Source of the DNA: a virus
Strand: one strand, 5' to 3'
Virus record (IMG/VR): IMGVR_UViG_3300017971_000275
Coordinates: 1-64,000 of that record
DNA length: 64,000 bases
The stretch's first letter is position 1. Each line of letters starts with the position of its first letter. Under the pieces are notes generated by a model. The model saw only the letters and a list, made by a program, of their open reading frames with translations. It was not told the origin of the DNA and ran no database searches. Made by a program: the position numbers and the translations under genes. Positions 2,548 through 61,780 of this stretch are shown one piece after another.

Positions 2548-3339
2548 ATGAAATTGACATTCCTCGGCACAGGACATGCCACCACCATCAAAAATTTCCA
2601 CACCAACATGCTGATGGAGTTTGCCGATGGCTATCGGATGCTCATCGACTGTGGTGGCGATATGCGCCGCGCACTACACGCAGCCGATTTCACACACCTC
2701 GACATCAACGCGGTGTACATCAGCCATCTACATGCTGACCATGTTGGTGGTATGGAGGACCTAGCCTTCCAAACGTACTTCGACCCTCGCTACCACGGTA
2801 AACCCGTGCTGTATGTCAGTGAGGCGCTCCAAGATGACATGTGGGGCCGCTCCCTAAGCGCGGGCTTGGGGTCACTCCAAGGGCAGCGCTGTACCCTAGA
2901 CACGTACTTCGACGTGCGGCCCATCACGAAGAATGAGAGCTTCATCGTACACGGCATTAAATTCCGCCCAGTCCAGACTATCCACTACGTCGACGGCTAC
3001 ACCTTCGCCCTCTCCTTCGGGCTGTTTTTTGAGGTGGGTGGTGAGCGCGTGTTCCTGACCACTGATACACAGTTCGCACCAAACCAAATCCAAGAGTTTT
3101 ACAGCCAGGCTACGATGATCGTACATGATGCCGAGTGCCTCCCATTCAAGAGTGGGGTACACGCCCACTTCGACGAGCTCACCACACTAGATCCAGAAAC
3201 CAAAGCGAAGATGTACCTGGCGCACTACCAGGATTTCGTGATCGATGATCCAGAGTGGAAAGCCAAAGCTGAGGCGGCCGGCTTCCGGGGGTTCATTCCG
3301 CAGGGAACAGTCTTCGAGTTTAATGAGGAGGATGTATGA
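2548..3339 (+). CDS. MBL-fold metallohydrolase (Apyc1/RNase Z-like phosphodiesterase)
   Basis: LTFLGTG, LIDCG, SHLHADH metal motif, HDAE, VHAH, LAHYQD; AAGGAGG RBS. Confidence 0.88.
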   Translation: MKLTFLGTGHATTIKNFHTNMLMEFADGYRMLIDCGGDMRRALHAADFTHLDINAVYISHLHADHVGGMEDLAFQTYFDPRYHGKPVLYVSEALQDDMWGRSLSAGLGSLQGQRCTLDTYFDVRPITKNESFIVHGIKFRPVQTIHYVDGYTFALSFGLFFEVGGERVFLTTDTQFAPNQIQEFYSQATMIVHDAECLPFKSGVHAHFDELTTLDPETKAKMYLAHYQDFVIDDPEWKAKAEAAGFRGFIPQGTVFEFNEEDV

Positions 3340-55423: not shown

Positions 55424-56455
55424 CTAAATCTGGAACGCTCTGGTGAGCTTCCAGCCTTTGCGAGGATCCCATCCCTCAGACATTACCATCGACGCGTACA
55501 GGATGCTATCCGTGTTCGTGTCCGAGGCGATCTGCCCGAAGAACTGGTCGTTGCGGATCGTGGTCAGTCTGGCGACAGTGCTCCGTCCCTGCTCTGTCTC
55601 CTTGTGGAAAGGAGTATCCAACAGATCGCGCACCTGCTTCCTGACTAGCTCATCCTGCTGCTGGTCGGCGCTCTCCAACGCGTCACACAAGGCGTCCATG
55701 TTGGTGAGGTCATCTACCTGCAGAGGCGTTCTGGTCTTGAGAACCTTGTCCGCATCCTGCTTCTGGCGCGAAGCCATGATGGCAGCAGAACCGTAGCAAA
55801 CACGGACCAGTGGTTCCCATACAGATTTCCAGTACGCAGCTGAAGGAGCTCGCTCGACGCCAACCACGTTACCGCTGATCAGGATGATGGCACCAACCTG
55901 GTTGTCTACGATCTCGAACTCTGCGATGAACTGATCCAGCTCCTCGGCGAACTGCTGCATGTACTGCACCAGGTTCTGTGTGGAGCTCATACCAGATTGC
56001 GCAGAAAAGGAGCCGATGGACTGCCATAGCTTGTTGTACCGTCGATCCTTTCTCTTCTCCAACGCTGGACGACGCAAAGCCAGCGGCAGAATCAGCATCT
56101 TGTGCTGGTCCTCGCGAATGTAGCCACCCTGCGTAGCCTGGATGCACATGGCGTTGTCCCAGACCTCCCGTCCCTTCGGAGGAACGATACCAGCGGTTGC
56201 CATCGCATGGTCCTGCGCTGCCTGCTTGACAACGTAACCAACATGTGTTGGCAGCAGAACTGGCTTGCCCGAAGGGTTCGAGAAGACCATTTCTCCGTAG
56301 TTGCGCGTCCCGACGCGGACCACGTCTGGATTCTCGAAGCGGTCATCCTGTAGATCTTCATCGAGGATCAACGGAATCACCTGCATCACACCGACCGTCT
56401 GGATGCGCCCGACTTCGCAACCGCGAAGGATTTCTTTGATCGTTAGAGGCTGCAT
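55424..56455 (-). CDS. ARPP-like domain protein (ARPP-1/DUF6569-like)
   Basis: QTVGVMQVIPL, NPSGKPVLL, QDHAM..GIVP, CIQ, QVGAIILISG.VVGVE; coupled to vWA gene. Confidence 0.6.
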   Translation of the reverse strand: MQPLTIKEILRGCEVGRIQTVGVMQVIPLILDEDLQDDRFENPDVVRVGTRNYGEMVFSNPSGKPVLLPTHVGYVVKQAAQDHAMATAGIVPPKGREVWDNAMCIQATQGGYIREDQHKMLILPLALRRPALEKRKDRRYNKLWQSIGSFSAQSGMSSTQNLVQYMQQFAEELDQFIAEFEIVDNQVGAIILISGNVVGVERAPSAAYWKSVWEPLVRVCYGSAAIMASRQKQDADKVLKTRTPLQVDDLTNMDALCDALESADQQQDELVRKQVRDLLDTPFHKETEQGRSTVARLTTIRNDQFFGQIASDTNTDSILYASMVMSEGWDPRKGWKLTRAFQI

Positions 56456-56456
56456 A

Positions 56457-58577
56457 TTACACCTCCTGCTGCAGCTCGTCCATCGGACGTTGTAGTACAG
56501 CCGCAGCCTGCTGACCGAGTTTCGTGTACAGGACGTAGTCTGTGCTTCGACCTGCTTTCTTGACTAGCCTACGGCGCCTTAGCGCTTCGACTGTCTGTGG
56601 CCTCACGCCAGCACCGCGGTAGTTGATTTTCCCGTCGACCTGGACTCTGTCCATATCAACGAGAGCATCGCGCATCGTCGGAGAGAGCTCACCGACAACG
56701 TCAAGTAGACGCTGCGTTACTGCCACCGAACGTCGCCGTCGTGGCTTGGGCAGCTCCACCTTAGGCGCCTGGAGCGCCTTCTGGCCCTGCCGCAGCAGCG
56801 CACGCAGACCGTTGAGCGGATCCTGCTCCAACGCTTCACGTAGAAGCGCAGTCCCGAAAGACTTGGGATCCTGCACAGGCATCGTCGGGATCACCCCTGA
56901 AGCCAATGAGCGCACCGAAGCAGTCTCCGCAGCAGACACAGGGTTCAGGTGGTAGATGGGCGTCGAAACCCCCATCTGCCTGATGGCCCGGACAGTCTCA
57001 GCGAAACGTCCAGCTGGGGTGTTGTCGTAACCATCGCTGATCACGTACACCGCAGACGGACGGTGATCGCGCATCGCTTTGGCCAGCGGCAACGCCAACG
57101 AGGTGTCCCCCGATGGACGTACCAGCCTACCACTGCGCTTACCACCAACCAGAACCCGACGGGCTCCTGCAGCTTGTAGCATGTCGCTCAGCGCCAAAGC
57201 AGATGCCATTGGACGAAGCTTCTGCGTCTCATCTCCAGACATCGAGCCTGAGGCGTCGACGATGACCACTGCATCAGAGCAGTCGAACGGCAGCAACGTG
57301 GCTGCCTGCTCAGCTTTCTCATCCAGCACATCGCGAATCTCCGCCGTCATCCCACGCTCGTAAGCGTAGACGTACAGCTTGATCGCGTCGTAGCGCTTCG
57401 GATCAAAGTCAGCCTTCGCCCCAGCTCGCTGCAGGCGCCGCTGGTGCTTGATCTTCTGCCCGTCAGTGAGCGCCTTCGTCTTCGACGTCAGACGCAATAC
57501 GTCGTCATGTGAGCGATCCTTGTGGAACACAGACCGGATACCTTCCAGAACTTCTGGGGGCAGGTTGCGTCCATCACGCAGGTCGTCACGCGCGTTGACG
57601 TAAGCCTTCAGGAGCGGAACCGTCCACGACTCTTCTGTGCTACCCAGCACAAACGCGACACACTGGCTGACGTGCCCTCGGTCGTTGTCGGTGTAGGCCC
57701 ACACGTGATCGTTGAGGATCCCGCGCTCTTTTTGCGTCCAGTGACGCTTACGGCAAATGCTGGCCACCATTGAAGCGGCGCGCTTACCCCACGCGTGCTG
57801 GAGCGCCCGACGCATCTTCCGGCGGTACTTGACAGCCCACCAGTCGAGCTTATCGGACCCCAAGATTGAGGTCAGGATCACCCGGCGCGTACGCTTATTG
57901 TTGCAGCCCGACTGATGCAGCATCTCGAAGAGCTGGAACATACGCGGAGCGGTAACCGCATTGACCAGGGCGGTGATGAGCTCGCGCTCACGCTGCAGGT
58001 CATACTGCGTAGGACGTCCCACTCCTGGCCACTCCAACAGCATCCACGCGGCCAGCTTACGTGCGTTGTCCGTCAAACCTGACAGGCACGACAGCAATCC
58101 GTAGGCGCCGCGGTCGATACTGAACATCGCGGCGTGCGCCAGCTTCTCGGCGCGCTGCTGGTCTTCCTTGGTGTTGTAGTGCGTTGCCCGGTTCATACCA
58201 GTCGTCGCCTGATCCAAGTAAGACGCCACTACGCGTCCAACGATCCGCTGCTCGCGCGGGTTGAGGTTTACTCTATCACCGCGCAATAGTTTCTTGGCGA
58301 GGCCAGGAACCTCTGGGATCGCGTAGCGCTCGCAGAAAATGCGGTTGCTGGTGCACTTATTGTACACCTTGTCCGCATCGGCTTGGTCTGGAACGATGTA
58401 ACCGTCCAGTAGCCTACCGTTGGGACCAGGAACTGCTTTGAGTCCCGGCTCCACGGACAAGCCGAGCTTGAGCCCGAACTTGCGCCCGCGCTCGCTGCCG
58501 TCGATGAACAACACGTGAGAGGTGGACTTCGCCCCCAGCTCACGGCGCAACTTGGTCGTTTGTAGTCCCTTACGCAT
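56457..58577 (-). CDS. TROVE/Ro60-like helical domain plus vWA protein
   Basis: Arg/Lys-rich helical N-region, then MIDAS VIVDASGSM, GDTS and VISDGYDN; start at MRKG after AAAGGGA. Confidence 0.72.
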   Translation of the reverse strand: MRKGLQTTKLRRELGAKSTSHVLFIDGSERGRKFGLKLGLSVEPGLKAVPGPNGRLLDGYIVPDQADADKVYNKCTSNRIFCERYAIPEVPGLAKKLLRGDRVNLNPREQRIVGRVVASYLDQATTGMNRATHYNTKEDQQRAEKLAHAAMFSIDRGAYGLLSCLSGLTDNARKLAAWMLLEWPGVGRPTQYDLQRERELITALVNAVTAPRMFQLFEMLHQSGCNNKRTRRVILTSILGSDKLDWWAVKYRRKMRRALQHAWGKRAASMVASICRKRHWTQKERGILNDHVWAYTDNDRGHVSQCVAFVLGSTEESWTVPLLKAYVNARDDLRDGRNLPPEVLEGIRSVFHKDRSHDDVLRLTSKTKALTDGQKIKHQRRLQRAGAKADFDPKRYDAIKLYVYAYERGMTAEIRDVLDEKAEQAATLLPFDCSDAVVIVDASGSMSGDETQKLRPMASALALSDMLQAAGARRVLVGGKRSGRLVRPSGDTSLALPLAKAMRDHRPSAVYVISDGYDNTPAGRFAETVRAIRQMGVSTPIYHLNPVSAAETASVRSLASGVIPTMPVQDPKSFGTALLREALEQDPLNGLRALLRQGQKALQAPKVELPKPRRRRSVAVTQRLLDVVGELSPTMRDALVDMDRVQVDGKINYRGAGVRPQTVEALRRRRLVKKAGRSTDYVLYTKLGQQAAAVLQRPMDELQQEV

Positions 58578-58652
58578 GGCGGGTGTCCCTTTCTGCACTG
58601 GTGAGAGTGCAAGTAATAATGTGTGGCCTTAATAAAAGCGGCCAGCAGATAC

Positions 58653-58681
58653 TTTATAAACAGTCGGTATGTCGTTGTCAA
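58653..58681 (-). promoter_or_regulatory. sigma70-like promoter for the TROVE-vWA operon
   Basis: TTGACA-N17-TATAAA, 8 nt beyond the last CRISPR repeat. Confidence 0.7.
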
Positions 58682-58689
58682 GTGTCAAG

Positions 58690-59083
58690 CGTACCACTAA
58701 CACGTGCGTGTGGAGCGCTTGCCGTGCCAGCAGGAGGCAGACAACACCGATTCGTACCACCCACACGTACGTTGGAAGCATATAGCATGGCAGCGACGTC
58801 CTTGCTGGACATGAACGTACCATCCACACATAGGTGGGAAGCACGAAGAGCTGGGCCGGCAGGTCTTCCAGAGGCAGCGTACCATCCACACATACGTGGG
58901 AAGCATCTATAGCCAGGAGGGCCAGTCCGTCGATCGCGGCGTACCACCCACACGTGCGTAGGGAGCACGTACTGTCTGCTTACCCCTAGGCAATGCCTGC
59001 AAGTACCACCCACACGTACATGGGAAGCGCTCAGCGCGTGGGCAGGGCCACAAGCCGGGGCTACGTACCACCCACATGCGTGT
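58690..59083 (-). CRISPR. CRISPR array: 6 full plus 1 partial 29-bp type I-E-like repeats, 6 spacers of 33-34 bp
   Basis: Repeats start (+) at 58690, 58753, 58816, 58878, 58940, 59002, 59064; minus-strand consensus GTGCTTCCCACGTACGTGTGGGTGGTACG; unique spacers. Confidence 0.88.
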
Positions 59084-60437
59084 TGCCGAGCTTCGCAACT
59101 CGGCTTTCCTGCTTCTTAGGCTCCGCTACCGGAGGTCCTCCACAGGCTGCTTTACCGCATGATCTGCGGCTGTTGAAATTTTTGATGTTCTTCGCAGCGT
59201 TGATGTCAGCGTTTTCTGTGTGGCCGCACTCAACGCACAAGAACACGTCTCTGGTTTTTCGGTTTTCCTTGGAAACATGCCCACACACGGAACACGCCTG
59301 CGACGTGTAGTGCGGTGGAACAAGGATCAGCTTGCCTCCTCGTTCTTTGAGCTTGTACTCCAGCATGGTCTCGAACATGCCCCAGCCTCTTTCCAAAATG
59401 GAGCGGTTCAGACCGGACTTTTGTTTGACGTTTTTGCCGGGCTCTTCTTTCGTGCCCTTAGCGCTTTTCGTCATGTTTGCTATCTGTAGATCTTCCAGCA
59501 CCACCACACCGTAACGCTCCGCGTAGTAGTTCGATTCTTTGTGGAGGAGATCTCGCAGCATCCGACTTTTACGCTTCCTGAGGCGAGACAAGTTGGCTAC
59601 AGCTTTACGATGGTTAGCCGAGTGTCTTGTCTTCAAACACTTCTTCTTGCGCTTCTTCTTAACCTTTTTTGTGTCGGTATCTATTTGGCGCACTGCCCGC
59701 TTGATGCGCTTTTCAATGGCAAAGTAGGCTTGCGGGAGCTCAACCAAACGACCGTCGCTGTCTGCGATCAAGTATTTGACGCCGCGGTCGATTCCCACGA
59801 TGGGAATATCTTTTTCCGCTGGTGTTGGAATCTCCAGTACGTAAGAGCACGACGCGTACCACTTACCAGCCTCAAGACAGATCGTACATCGACGCAAGGA
59901 TTTAAATTCCGGCATACGATGAGTTTTTGTGCGGATGTACCCTAAGCTTCTCCCGTAAACATAGATCATGCCATCAAGGAGCTTCCACGCAGAAGCTCCG
60001 AAAATGCCGATACCGACCGGTCTATTACGCCCTCGGAATTTTGGCTTACCTCCTCTACCTTCGTACCACGCGGTGAAAGCGCGGTTTACTGCTTCGACGA
60101 TCAAGATCATCGCGGCGCGCGGAACTCCTTTAAAGAAGTCCATTTTGCGGATCTCGGTGAGCTGCGCTGACATGCCCCGGCTAGCGTGCTGGAAGAATTC
60201 CTTCCAGCCCCGCTTCTTGGGATCCATCTCGATGCCCACCTGACGGTAAGCGTTGGTTAGCAGTCCTTCGTCATCGTAGCGCGTAGCCCGACGATGCGCA
60301 TACATAAACCGGTGCTCCAGCACTACGTTGTAAAGTACGCGTAGGCGCCATTCCCAGTCGCGCAGGATTTCTTCCTGTTGGGGTGTTGGATAAATGCGGT
60401 AACGAGTAGCGCGTTCCAGTTTGAGCTTCTCGCTCAT
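59061..60437 (-). CDS. tnpB: TnpB (IS200/IS605 OrfB) / Cas12f-like RNA-guided nuclease
   Basis: YRIYPT HTH, RuvC-I VGIDRG, RuvC-II VLEDL, CSVC...CVEC zinc finger, RuvC-III NADINAA; catalytic D-E-D intact. Confidence 0.93.
   Translation of the reverse strand: MSEKLKLERATRYRIYPTPQQEEILRDWEWRLRVLYNVVLEHRFMYAHRRATRYDDEGLLTNAYRQVGIEMDPKKRGWKEFFQHASRGMSAQLTEIRKMDFFKGVPRAAMILIVEAVNRAFTAWYEGRGGKPKFRGRNRPVGIGIFGASAWKLLDGMIYVYGRSLGYIRTKTHRMPEFKSLRRCTICLEAGKWYASCSYVLEIPTPAEKDIPIVGIDRGVKYLIADSDGRLVELPQAYFAIEKRIKRAVRQIDTDTKKVKKKRKKKCLKTRHSANHRKAVANLSRLRKRKSRMLRDLLHKESNYYAERYGVVVLEDLQIANMTKSAKGTKEEPGKNVKQKSGLNRSILERGWGMFETMLEYKLKERGGKLILVPPHYTSQACSVCGHVSKENRKTRDVFLCVECGHTENADINAAKNIKNFNSRRSCGKAACGGPPVAEPKKQESRVAKLGNTHVGGT
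59064..59170 (-). ncRNA. putative omega-RNA scaffold overlapping the tnpB 3' end and fused to the first repeat
   Basis: GCCTGTGGAG...AAGCAGGAA typical of IS605 right-end RNA; GCCGAGTT-GCGA-AGCTCGGC hairpin; 5' boundary uncertain. Confidence 0.6.
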
Positions 60438-60485
60438 GCGTAATGGTCCCCGGTAATGTGGTCCGCTTTTAGCGGACGGTAATAA

Positions 60486-60566
60486 ATCGAGGAAGTTTGA
60501 AGGTCGCGTGGTGAATGGTTTTCAAATGAGCGAAAAACTTCTGTAGCAACCTAAGCAGTCCTCGAT
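60486..60566 (-). ncRNA. Y-RNA-like unit A (conserved stem, no tRNA module)
   Basis: TCGAGGACTGC-TTAGGTTGC-TACAG...GCGACCTT-CAAACT-TCCTCGA. Confidence 0.7.
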
Positions 60567-60579
60567 ACTCGTAAATAGC

Positions 60580-60699
60580 TGGTGGAAATGTGAACGTCAA
60601 GTTTTGGTGAATTGCAGGACTCGAACCTGCGACCCTCTCGTTGATAGCGAGATGCTCATCCAACTGAGCTAAATTCTGTATTGACGTTGCCGTCCACCA
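60580..60699 (-). ncRNA. Y-RNA-like unit B (unpermuted tRNA module, ATC anticodon, 5-bp acceptor plus ACCA)
   Basis: TGGTGGACGGC-AACGTCAA-TACAG...TTGACGTT-CACATT-TCCACCA; D, anticodon and T arms intact. Confidence 0.75.
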
Positions 60700-60702
60700 A
60701 AA

Positions 60703-60748
60703 TGGAGCGCTTGGGAATCGAACCCTATCGAGCCACCAGGGTGCTCCA
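60703..60748 (-). ncRNA. mini tRNA-like element (acceptor plus T-arm only)
   Basis: GGAGCAC...TAGGG-TTCGATT-CCCAA-GCGCTCC-A. Confidence 0.5.
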
Positions 60749-60750
60749 GA

Positions 60751-60887
60751 AGAGGAAATGTGAAAGCAAAGAGAATGAGTTTTGAACTTCTCGGGCATAG
60801 AGAGCCCGAGCCTGGATTCGAACCAGGAACCTTTCGTTTTACGGACGAATGTTCTTCCAATTTTCTGTACTTGCTTTGCAGTCCTCT
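60751..60887 (-). ncRNA. Y-RNA-like unit C (tRNA module permuted at D-loop, GTA anticodon)
   Basis: AGAGGACTGC-AAAGCAAG-TACAG...GAAC-anticodon arm-T arm-CTCGGGC/GCCCGAG-GTTC...TTTGCTTT-CACATT-TCCTCT. Confidence 0.78.
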
Positions 60888-60930
60888 ACATCGAATATCT
60901 GTTCACCGCATGAGCAGTGGTTGTTTTAGA

Positions 60931-61055
60931 TAGAGGAAATGTGACAGCAGCAATTCCCAATGAACTTCTCCCCGTTAAAAGCCGGGGAGCTTGGATTCGA
61001 ACCAAGACCTATCACTTTGGAGGTGATTGTTCTGTACTTGCTGTGCAGTCCTCTA
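60931..61055 (-). ncRNA. Y-RNA-like unit D (tRNA module permuted at D-loop, CCA anticodon)
   Basis: TAGAGGACTGC-ACAGCAAG-TACAGAAC-A-ATCAC CTCCAAA GTGAT-T arm-CTCCCCG/CGGGGAG-GTTC...TGCTGT-CACATT-TCCTCTA. Confidence 0.78.
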
Positions 61056-61097
61056 CACCGTTTATCTGTTCGCCGCTTGCGCGACGGGTATTTTAAA

Positions 61098-61243
61098 TCG
61101 AGGAAGGGTATCGGTAGAAGATGGATTGTTTATCCACCGCATCAATAAGCGGTTGCCTTTACCAATTTGGCCACATCCCCCTAGTTGGGGATGCCAGGAC
61201 TTGAACCTGGAAAATTTTCCTGTACCTACCGATTAGTCCTCGA
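61098..61243 (-). ncRNA. Y-RNA-like unit E (tRNA module permuted between variable arm and T-arm)
   Basis: TCGAGGACTA-ATCGGTAGG-TACAG...T arm-CATCCCC/GGGGATG-D arm-ACCGC/GCGGT-variable arm...CTACCGAT-ACCCT-TCCTCGA. Confidence 0.78.
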
Positions 61244-61405
61244 AAAATGATTTCTCCTCACGTTATCGTAGGCTTTAGCAGCCTGCGCTCTTGTTGTCTT
61301 GATGCCCTCTCGGGCTTGCGTCGCGATGATCGTCCGGATCATCAGCTCTCTACGTTGCGCCTCATTACTGAGGATCGAGCGGATGTCAAGGCGTCTTCGC
61401 GGCAT
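61226..61405 (-). CDS. 59-aa basic hypothetical protein (below the ORF-track cutoff)
   Basis: MPRRRLDIRSILSNEAQRRELMIRTIIATQAREGIKTTRAQAAKAYDNVRRNHFSRTNR*. Confidence 0.5.
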   Translation of the reverse strand: MPRRRLDIRSILSNEAQRRELMIRTIIATQAREGIKTTRAQAAKAYDNVRRNHFSRTNR

Positions 61406-61420
61406 CTACCTAAAAATTAG

Positions 61421-61552
61421 TCGAGGAAATTCGAGAGTAAGAGGCGAAAGTAACAAGGAGCGGGATTTGAACCCGCGACCTTCGGTTTATAAGACCGACG
61501 CTCAACCAACTGAGCTATCATTGTTGTTCTGTACTTACTCTGCCGTCCTCGA
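61421..61552 (-). ncRNA. Y-RNA-like unit F (unpermuted tRNA module, TAT anticodon)
   Basis: TCGAGGACGGC-AGAGTAAG-TACAG...cloverleaf TCGGT-CTTATAA-ACCGA...CTTACTCT-CGAATT-TCCTCGA. Confidence 0.78.
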
Positions 61553-61780
61553 AATCGTAAAGCTTGCTCCGTGGAGTTTTCCACCCACCCAGCCTAGCTC
61601 ACCTTTTAAAGAGAGGGTGACCTTTGCTGTGTCTTCCTTGAGTGGCGGTAGCTCCTCAAGTGTTTCCATGATTATAGGCAGCAGGATTTCCCTGTCAAGC
61701 TTTTTGTCAACCACGGAGGCAAATTCTTCGAGAAAAATCTGCTCCGCTTGAGCAGCGAGCTTTTGCTGCTTACTTGACAT
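61535..61780 (-). CDS. hypothetical protein
   Basis: Start MSSKQQ; stop lies inside unit F 5' stem. Confidence 0.55.
   Translation of the reverse strand: MSSKQQKLAAQAEQIFLEEFASVVDKKLDREILLPIIMETLEELPPLKEDTAKVTLSLKGELGWVGGKLHGASFTISRTAE

Follow-up and report, generated by a model that had tools for sequence, protein, structure and literature searches.

Natural intermediates between the transposon-encoded nuclease TnpB and the CRISPR effector Cas12, in which a CRISPR array lies downstream of a TnpB-like gene, have already been published as the V-U*, TranC, Cas12n and Cas12r systems. Here we describe a phage locus of this kind in a DNA stretch of 64,000 nucleotides (nt), hereafter the window, which comprises the first 64,000 bases of the 73,299-bp IMG/VR virus record IMGVR_UViG_3300017971_000275 (CheckV completeness 21%). 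In it, the gene for an intact TnpB runs directly into an array of seven repeat units and six spacers, and the first repeat is fused to the TnpB guide-RNA scaffold. The array lies downstream of a TnpB/Cas12-like effector and on the same strand, as in minimal type V systems. We judge it marginally probable that the locus encodes an immobilized TnpB turned effector of a minimal, phage-borne type V-like guide module, which is predicted to work and to represent an independent lineage. As such, the locus is a rare further example of the recently described minimal phage CRISPR systems and not a first.

The closest known system is Cas12r-CRISPR of the Thermus Lalka phages (Trofimova et al., bioRxiv 10.64898/2026.04.20.719267), which, according to the accessible portion of that preprint, is experimentally active, uses CRISPR RNAs (crRNAs) made of 26 nt of repeat and 18 nt of spacer, and has arrays for which adaptation by a host type I-E system is proposed. 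The window locus was compared with Cas12r through this published description. Both consist of a phage TnpB-like nuclease and, after it, a short same-strand array, with no cas1, cas2 or other adaptation genes in either as far as that portion describes Cas12r, and both have degenerate 29-bp type I-E-like repeats, with spacers of 31-33 nt in Cas12r and of 33-34 nt in the window. They differ in the effector, since the Cas12r described there has 564 amino acids (aa), comes from phages of thermophiles and belongs to a TnpB branch that its authors call thermophile-only, whereas the window protein has 458 aa. They also differ in the guide RNA: in the experiments covered by the same text, the Cas12r crRNA alone suffices and no scaffold RNA was detected, whereas in the window an omega-RNA core is fused in cis to the first repeat (R1).

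TranC (Jin et al., Cell 2025; known here through PMC13565253 and bioRxiv 10.64898/2026.03.27.714800) likewise comprises TnpB-sized effectors that adjoin CRISPR arrays with, in the available parts of these sources, no other cas genes; it is described there as having arisen several times from IS605 or IS607 TnpB, with the ultra-compact CauTranC9 coming from a phage. Its guide, however, is split between a tracrRNA (trans-activating CRISPR RNA) and a crRNA that pair, and the repeats reported in those parts are 32-38 bp long, whereas the window has 29-nt repeats, no anti-repeat that could be found and a first guide that is still fused to the scaffold. The V-U* effectors, of which the accessible text of Altae-Tran et al. 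2023 (PMC10691335) describes 40 branches, resemble the window protein in their TnpB size, in their downstream arrays and, in that text, in the lack of other cas genes. Cas12n (type V-N, formerly V-U4) shares with the locus the downstream array, the absence of cas1 and cas2, and a guide-RNA scaffold that overlaps a disordered C-terminal coding tail, its tracrRNA lying over the tail of the open reading frame (ORF) in the part of PMC12216341 available; it differs in that its tracrRNA is separate and in that the window protein scores higher to ordinary TnpBs and has TnpBs as its best structural matches. Cas12p, as outlined in the accessible part of bioRxiv 10.1101/2025.01.20.633832, is another phage system. 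With the IS200/IS605 OMEGA systems, finally, the locus has in common the protein fold, the catalytic residues, an omega-RNA core over the 3' end of the gene and a guide immediately 3' of the scaffold, but it lacks tnpA, the left end and the ...TCAA right end, is present in a single copy and is flanked by a repeat/spacer array.

The affinity of the protein to TnpB was apparent at the level of domains, sequence and predicted structure. The ORF contains the Pfam domains HTH_OrfB_IS605, OrfB_IS605 and Cas12f1-like_TNB and matches the NCBIfam family guided_TnpB with 227 bits, and in a 60-sequence alignment D217, E315 and D411 as well as the zinc ligands C382/C385/C401/C404 were invariant. An AlphaFold model reached a mean predicted local distance difference test score (pLDDT) of 85.7, with poor confidence at an insertion at about residues 45-95 and in the tail of residues 428-458 (pLDDT below 50 in 428-438, 440-446 and 449-458); this tail is disordered, and its coding DNA overlaps the RNA scaffold. 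The best structural matches of the model were the ISFba1 and ISDra2 TnpB proteins. By sequence, the best match among solved structures was RdCas12n (9J09, 113.7 bits) and the best PADLOC model was Cas12u4 (198.8 bits), Cas12n being outscored by ordinary TnpBs at 230-255 bits, and LaTranC was a weak match (38 bits). The gene is present once in the 73,299-bp record.

Immediately before the array, and overlapping the 3' end of tnpB, lies an RNA scaffold whose CCUGU/GCAGG stem core is common to eight TnpB relatives, in which it is found downstream of or overlapping the gene and shows one compensatory pair. A 217-nt stretch of this region folded better than all of 200 shuffled sequences (z = -2.86), and an Rfam search of positions 58300-59700 with an E-value threshold returned no match. 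At the join to the array, the 5' part of R1 is the 3' arm of the scaffold hairpin, with only 1-4 of its first 10 nt matching R2-R7, and its last 13-14 nt (59064-59077) are identical to the core of R2-R7. The last six TnpB codons, THVGGT, are encoded in R1, and the TAG stop (59063-59061) is formed by the first three bases of spacer 1. In the relatives, the scaffold continues with one or two more hairpins and then a ...TCAA end, neither of which is present in the window. The protein tails preserve a corresponding trace, as those of the homologues P0002, P0004 and P0008 run 8-16 codons beyond the hairpin, with a GT..QL motif common to P0004 and P0008 in the part after the hairpin; in the window tail G-N-T-H is retained, and the next residues, V-G-G-T, are those of the repeat core. 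This comparison of homologue tails suggests that the 3' part of a repeat has taken the place of the scaffold's ancestral 3' end. Because the scaffold continues in cis into the 3' core of the repeat, spacer 1 falls exactly in the guide position.

The array as a whole extends over 58690-59092 on the tnpB strand. Along the minus strand, the repeats start at spacings of 62, 62, 62, 62, 63 and 63 nt and enclose spacers of 33, 33, 33, 33, 34 and 33 nt; the 14-nt repeat core, with up to two mismatches, occurs at seven sites in the 73,299-bp record, all seven in the array. Tandem Repeats Finder is blind to the array because the spacers differ, and a general repeat search detects it. Pairwise, R2-R7 are identical at 20-27 of 29 positions (69-93%), with R7 at the far end among the more diverged (20-24 of 29 to the others); repeats at the trailer end of an array are usually diverged. 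The last base is T in R2 and G in all other repeats. The spacers are mutually unrelated, being no more alike than shuffled sequences, and have a mean GC content of 62% against 52% for the phage genome. In each of R2-R7, a hairpin extends over the full length of the repeat; across the six repeats 90.9% of the cells of this hairpin are paired and two pairs have changed on both sides (C-G/U-A/U-G at one, C-G/A-U at the other), a conservation that is weakly significant, as 33 of 500 shuffles do as well.

A geometry of 29 + 33 nt is typical of type I-E arrays, and the array has this format. The format call is based on a 29-nt repeat with type I-E-like features, as given in the accessible part of bioRxiv 10.64898/2026.04.20.719267. 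Among the ORFs scanned over the record no type I-E cas genes were found, and in 185,579 species genomes a two-copy core pattern retrieved no type I-E locus with the same repeat. A Pfam scan of 77 ORFs, chosen mostly at 100 aa or more from the 108 called over the whole record, detected no tnpA, no Y1 or serine transposase and no cas family, and in IMG/VR the 14-nt repeat core gave at least 115 single chance matches and no array among the matches listed.

A first, sequence-only reading of this DNA had proposed much of this anatomy, and the analysis bears it out: the TnpB is intact, its D-E-D triad and zinc finger being invariant among homologues; the omega-RNA-like motifs and the GCGA hairpin were located before the array and their core is homologous to the omega-RNAs of relatives; the THVGGT codons in R1 and the TAG stop that opens spacer 1 are as read; and the six spacers of 33-34 bp at a period of 62-63 bp were recovered, among seven repeat units. 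The same reading had seen no TCAA terminus, tnpA or cas genes, in agreement with the comparison to the relatives' right ends and with the Pfam scan.

Table 1. Features of the tnpB-array locus, in coordinates of the window.
Feature	Coordinates	Strand	Remarks
tnpB	59061-60437	(-)	458-aa ORF; RuvC triad and CxxC...CxxC zinc finger intact
Conserved omega-RNA core	59085-59151	(-)	closing stem CCUGU/GCAGG around hairpin, then GCGA-tetraloop hairpin
GCGA-loop hairpin	59085-59104	(-)	
Motif GCCTGTGGAGG	59147-59137	(-)	
Motif AAGCAGGAA	59114-59106	(-)	
R1	59064-59092	(-)	partial first repeat
Spacer 1	59031-59063	(-)	33 nt; omega-RNA guide position; opens with TAG stop
R2	59002-59030	(-)	
R3	58940-58968	(-)	
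R4	58878-58906	(-)	
R5	58816-58844	(-)	
R6	58753-58781	(-)	
R7	58690-58719	(-)	1-nt insertion
R2-R7 and spacers 2-6	58690-59030	(-)	repeats 29-30 nt, degenerate; spacers 33-34 nt
Extra block (tnpB, scaffold, array and ~40 nt)	58650-60445 (approximate, ~1.8 kb)	(-)	relative to related phages

Comparison with related phages showed that tnpB and the array are present or absent together. The gene order around the locus is common to four related phage contigs (L288-L291), and L289 is part of a complete 349,793-bp relative with direct terminal repeats (G002). Given this synteny, the record is a fragment of a jumbo phage, marine or sediment, and the phage origin assumed in the sequence-only reading thus holds. 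Between a tRNA and a gene for a protein with a VWA-like domain (landmarks 60580 and 58594), the gap measures ~1,990 nt in the window, ~230 nt in L288 and ~95 nt in L289, and L290 and L291 also pass from the tRNA to the VWA gene without the block. Before the block, the conserved phage backbone is made up of an inter-tRNA motif that resembles a promoter, a small hairpin and a terminator hairpin's 5' arm; it stops ~10 nt short of the tnpB ATG and is picked up again 40-80 nt past R7, so that the left edge of the block lies ~10 nt upstream of the ATG, its right edge falls within 58650-58690, and the alignment with the related phages leaves no transposon left end at tnpB. The four related records contain no array-like DNA; three of the four contain no TnpB, and none contains an intact tnpB. 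The tnpB gene and the array are therefore extra together, both being absent from the four related phages. This joint presence and absence, with no left end, no tnpA and no second copy, argues against a fresh insertion sequence (IS) beside an older phage array.

Candidate ends for an IS inserted in a pre-existing array had been suspected in a TTCAA at 60501-60497 (target site) and a hairpin at ~60474-60458 (left end), and were ruled out, as both are part of the conserved inter-tRNA backbone of the related phages. In the same tRNA region, at L289:4086-4624 (-), equivalent to G002:C1 ~250080-250618, the G002 relative has another TnpB with an internal deletion, on the strand opposite to that of the window tnpB; the N-terminal 105-aa and C-terminal 114-aa frames of this TnpB overlap, and it has no array.

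Close relatives of the window TnpB are few. Representatives that score above 300 bits number only four in 1.84 billion, namely P0003, P0004, P0005 and P0006; the closest homologue, P0002, is 56% identical, and the close homologues all lie on short contigs. In a tree of 92 rows (the window TnpB, the loci with a complete ORF of 350-600 aa, and those of P0002-P0045 with 380-700 aa; truncated ORFs and all other hits were excluded), the window TnpB grouped with P0002 (support 96), then with P0005/P0003 (99) and then with P0006/P0007 (98). Its clade has an insertion in the REC region after the first helix, whereas TnpBs of ~400 aa are without it. Among viral contigs, a protein scan returned no relatives in 99 stretches and a scan with the clade alignment returned one distant relative in 19 stretches. 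A metagenome scan yielded 518 TnpB relatives, of which the best 80 were examined; none of these 80 exceeded 39% identity over the full length.

A k-mer scan found periodic repeats in five of these best 80 metagenome loci, and in three of the five they form arrays just downstream on the same strand. At L042:1391-1850, 29-nt repeats with a 61-nt period are accompanied by an intergenic anti-repeat (-39.6 kcal/mol), a split-guide form; at L013:1560-2059, also a split-guide form, a T-run terminates the scaffold, whose last stem arm pairs with the 37-nt repeat. At L082:3378-3650, next to a TnpB of 28.5% identity, a partial first repeat is fused to the upstream RNA, as in the window, and is followed by four degenerate 27-nt repeats with 34-nt spacers, the repeat resembling that of the window. 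As L042, L013 and L082 are all far from the window clade in the tree, the association of TnpB with arrays has arisen several times, in line with the account that Altae-Tran et al. give of their V-U* branches. Elsewhere, L004:97-700 has ten degenerate ~33-nt repeats with a 66-nt period ~590 nt upstream of a TnpB relative; the effector of that array, if any, is off the contig. A PHROGs comparison of the neighbour genes of L082 and of the window gave nothing useful.

Taken together, the anatomy of the join, the homology of the scaffold, the tails of the homologues, the empty sites and the missing left end lead us to favour an immobilized TnpB that serves a phage-borne guide module, a reading to which the retention of the repeat hairpin despite divergence (of weak significance), the parallel layouts in L082, L042 and L013 and the precedent of Cas12r add. 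The earlier proposal that the transposon end was replaced by an array, leaving spacer 1 in the guide position, is accordingly supported by anatomy, homologue tails and empty sites alike. In such a module, the ancestral right end would have been swapped by recombination with a repeat of type I-E format, perhaps via a short ACGCA stretch common to the scaffold and repeats R3 and R7. The spacers may have been gained through a host type I-E Cas1-Cas2, as suggested by the geometry of 29 + 33 nt, by the lack of relatedness among the spacers and by the last base of the repeat, which varies in R2. The nuclease would load the scaffold with spacer 1 as a classical omega-RNA, and the remaining units, with the same guide-adjacent 13 nt and a conserved hairpin, could supply more guides, either through the scaffold acting in trans or through direct recognition as in Cas12r. 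Competition with other mobile elements in the same host would be the likely role.

A bolder version, which we put forward tentatively and consider unlikely in its full form, holds that the locus has been caught at the exchange of the TnpB right end for a CRISPR array, in a lineage separate from TranC, Cas12n and Cas12r, and that one TnpB uses both 'unsplit plus split' guides. A single transcript would then comprise a complete cis omega-RNA (scaffold and spacer 1) followed by scaffold-less units of type I-E format; the later guides would be taken by a hairpin handle evolved from the lost arm of the last scaffold stem, and host type I-E Cas1-Cas2 would write new units.

A different account would separate the two parts of the block. 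According to it, the repeats are an orphan type I-E mini-array of the phage, read by host Cascade and Cas6e, and the TnpB is what remains of an unrelated transposon, having landed in the first repeat or recombined with it, so that at most spacer 1 or repeat-derived sequence would be an accidental guide. The type I-E format, with 29-nt hairpin repeats and 33-nt spacers, fits this account, as does the failure to find a tracr partner for R2-R7, but no array in which two copies of the 10-nt repeat core neighbour each other at a period of 58-66 nt was present in 185,579 species genomes, none of the 89 two-copy core matches inspected there being a CRISPR repeat of this kind. TnpB elements do invade the tRNA region, as the decayed G002 copy (L289:4086-4624, other strand) attests; at the window tnpB, however, the lack of a left end excludes a recent IS insertion, the upstream TTCAA belongs to the conserved phage inter-tRNA motif, no repeat remainder or further array lies upstream of the gene, and in none of the four related phages does the array occur without tnpB. 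The scaffolds of relatives end 7-9 nt past the last hairpin, and if the same held here the rest of the repeat core could be read as flanking guide DNA; yet the partial-first-repeat layout recurs in the distant L082. On balance we regard an orphan array with a chance TnpB neighbour as improbable.

Several results weigh against a working TnpB-array module. The search for spacer targets that the sequence-only reading had called for came back empty: the spacers had no match within the phage's own record, no significant match in isolate phages and plasmids (all E at least 4) or in the four related phage records (E at least 0.23), and exact 20-mers from spacers 1-4 (four of the six) found no target in IMG/VR. 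The searched databases probably do not hold the spacer targets. No spacer turnover was seen, as only two sequencing runs, both of DNA, contain the locus and their contigs match the window without a difference across tnpB and the array; these runs may themselves be the source of the stretch and are thus uninformative on turnover or expression. The degeneracy of the repeats (69-93% pairwise) speaks against spacers having been taken up recently, the sequence that R2-R7 have in common with the scaffold-linked R1 is limited to 13-19 nt, and the related phages are only 65-69% identical in DNA, leaving room for two separate insertions. Finally, no anti-repeat or tracr partner for R2-R7 rises above the genome-wide background: the best same-strand pairing site outside the array reaches -32 to -33 kcal/mol, and unrelated genome sites reach -37.9 kcal/mol. 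The suggestion that the other spacers are used as split crRNAs found no support. One anti-repeat candidate, at 60350-60311 (-33.2 kcal/mol, or -32.4 in a coarser scan), was rejected by the same comparison with unrelated sites (-37.9).

Some of these results, together with signs of decay, could instead reflect a relic, that is, a once functional TnpB-array module (or captured host module) that is now inert and kept by chance. Degenerate repeats and the insertion in R7 would be expected of a decaying locus, but the arrays of the experimentally active Cas12r have degenerate repeats too, and the repeat hairpin has been kept through one- and two-sided changes. The tnpB gene is single-copy, belongs to a tiny lineage (four representatives above 300 bits among 1.84 billion) and has a clearly decayed counterpart in the relative G002; the window ORF itself, however, runs uninterrupted through 458 codons, retains every catalytic residue and zinc ligand, yields a confident model (pLDDT 85.7) and is accompanied by an intact scaffold core. 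The missing spacer targets, with the IMG/VR search covering spacers 1-4, also suit a relic, which we consider distinctly unlikely. A last alternative, that the array is a guide store in which recombination between R1 and a downstream repeat via the shared 13-19 nt deletes units and brings a new spacer to the cis scaffold with no split crRNA, accords with R1 and R2-R7 having only the guide-adjacent core in common and with the failure to find an anti-repeat, but it is very improbable, as the two runs (contigs only) show zero deletion joints across the array, each deletion would be irreversible, and we know of no precedent for an array as a one-at-a-time guide store.

Elsewhere in the window, the phage encodes the thymidylate synthase ThyX, a thymidylate kinase, an amidase, an HNH endonuclease, an Apyc1-like enzyme and several tRNAs. 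The Apyc1-like protein is a metallo-beta-lactamase of the anti-Pycsar family (2548-3339, 93 bits) and, like a GmrSD_N-domain protein at 89-622, a candidate counter-defence or defence gene. Directly downstream of the tnpB-array block, a gene pair at 55424-58598 (-) encodes an ARPP-1/ARPP-2-domain protein (343 aa) and a 713-aa protein with a weak VWA_CoxE match; the pair is kept in the four related phages, across which the 713-aa protein shows 55-65% aa identity. On the other side of the block, a motif of ~60 nt (CTTGACGTTCACATTTCC ... CGAGGAC...CTACAGAA) precedes each tRNA in the window (60440-61700) and in L288-L291; at 60537-60506 the window has the motif and only a ~32-nt remnant where the relatives carry a tRNA. 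ARAGORN called tRNAs with unusual A34 or rare anticodons, Asp-ATC, Ile-TAT and Thr-AGT, at 60606-60678 and 61450-61525 of the window, at L288:4145-4220 and at L291:4482-4554, the Asp-ATC call being found again in a related phage. A promoter scan of 58400-60800 found no sigma-70-type promoter.

If inactive, the locus would be a further mobile-element remnant decaying in the tRNA region of a phage. If the favoured TnpB-array module is active, the handful of natural forms known from the transition of TnpB to Cas12 would gain an independent phage lineage with a very small protein (458 aa), in which the first guide remains joined to the ancestral scaffold, and the RNA changes that a TnpB needs to read an array would become testable on a single 1.8-kb block. 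An active module would also add to growing evidence that TnpB-like nucleases of phages have time and again co-opted arrays of type I-E format, likely because the polarity and spacer geometry of such arrays suit type V guides and because host type I-E adaptation can extend them.

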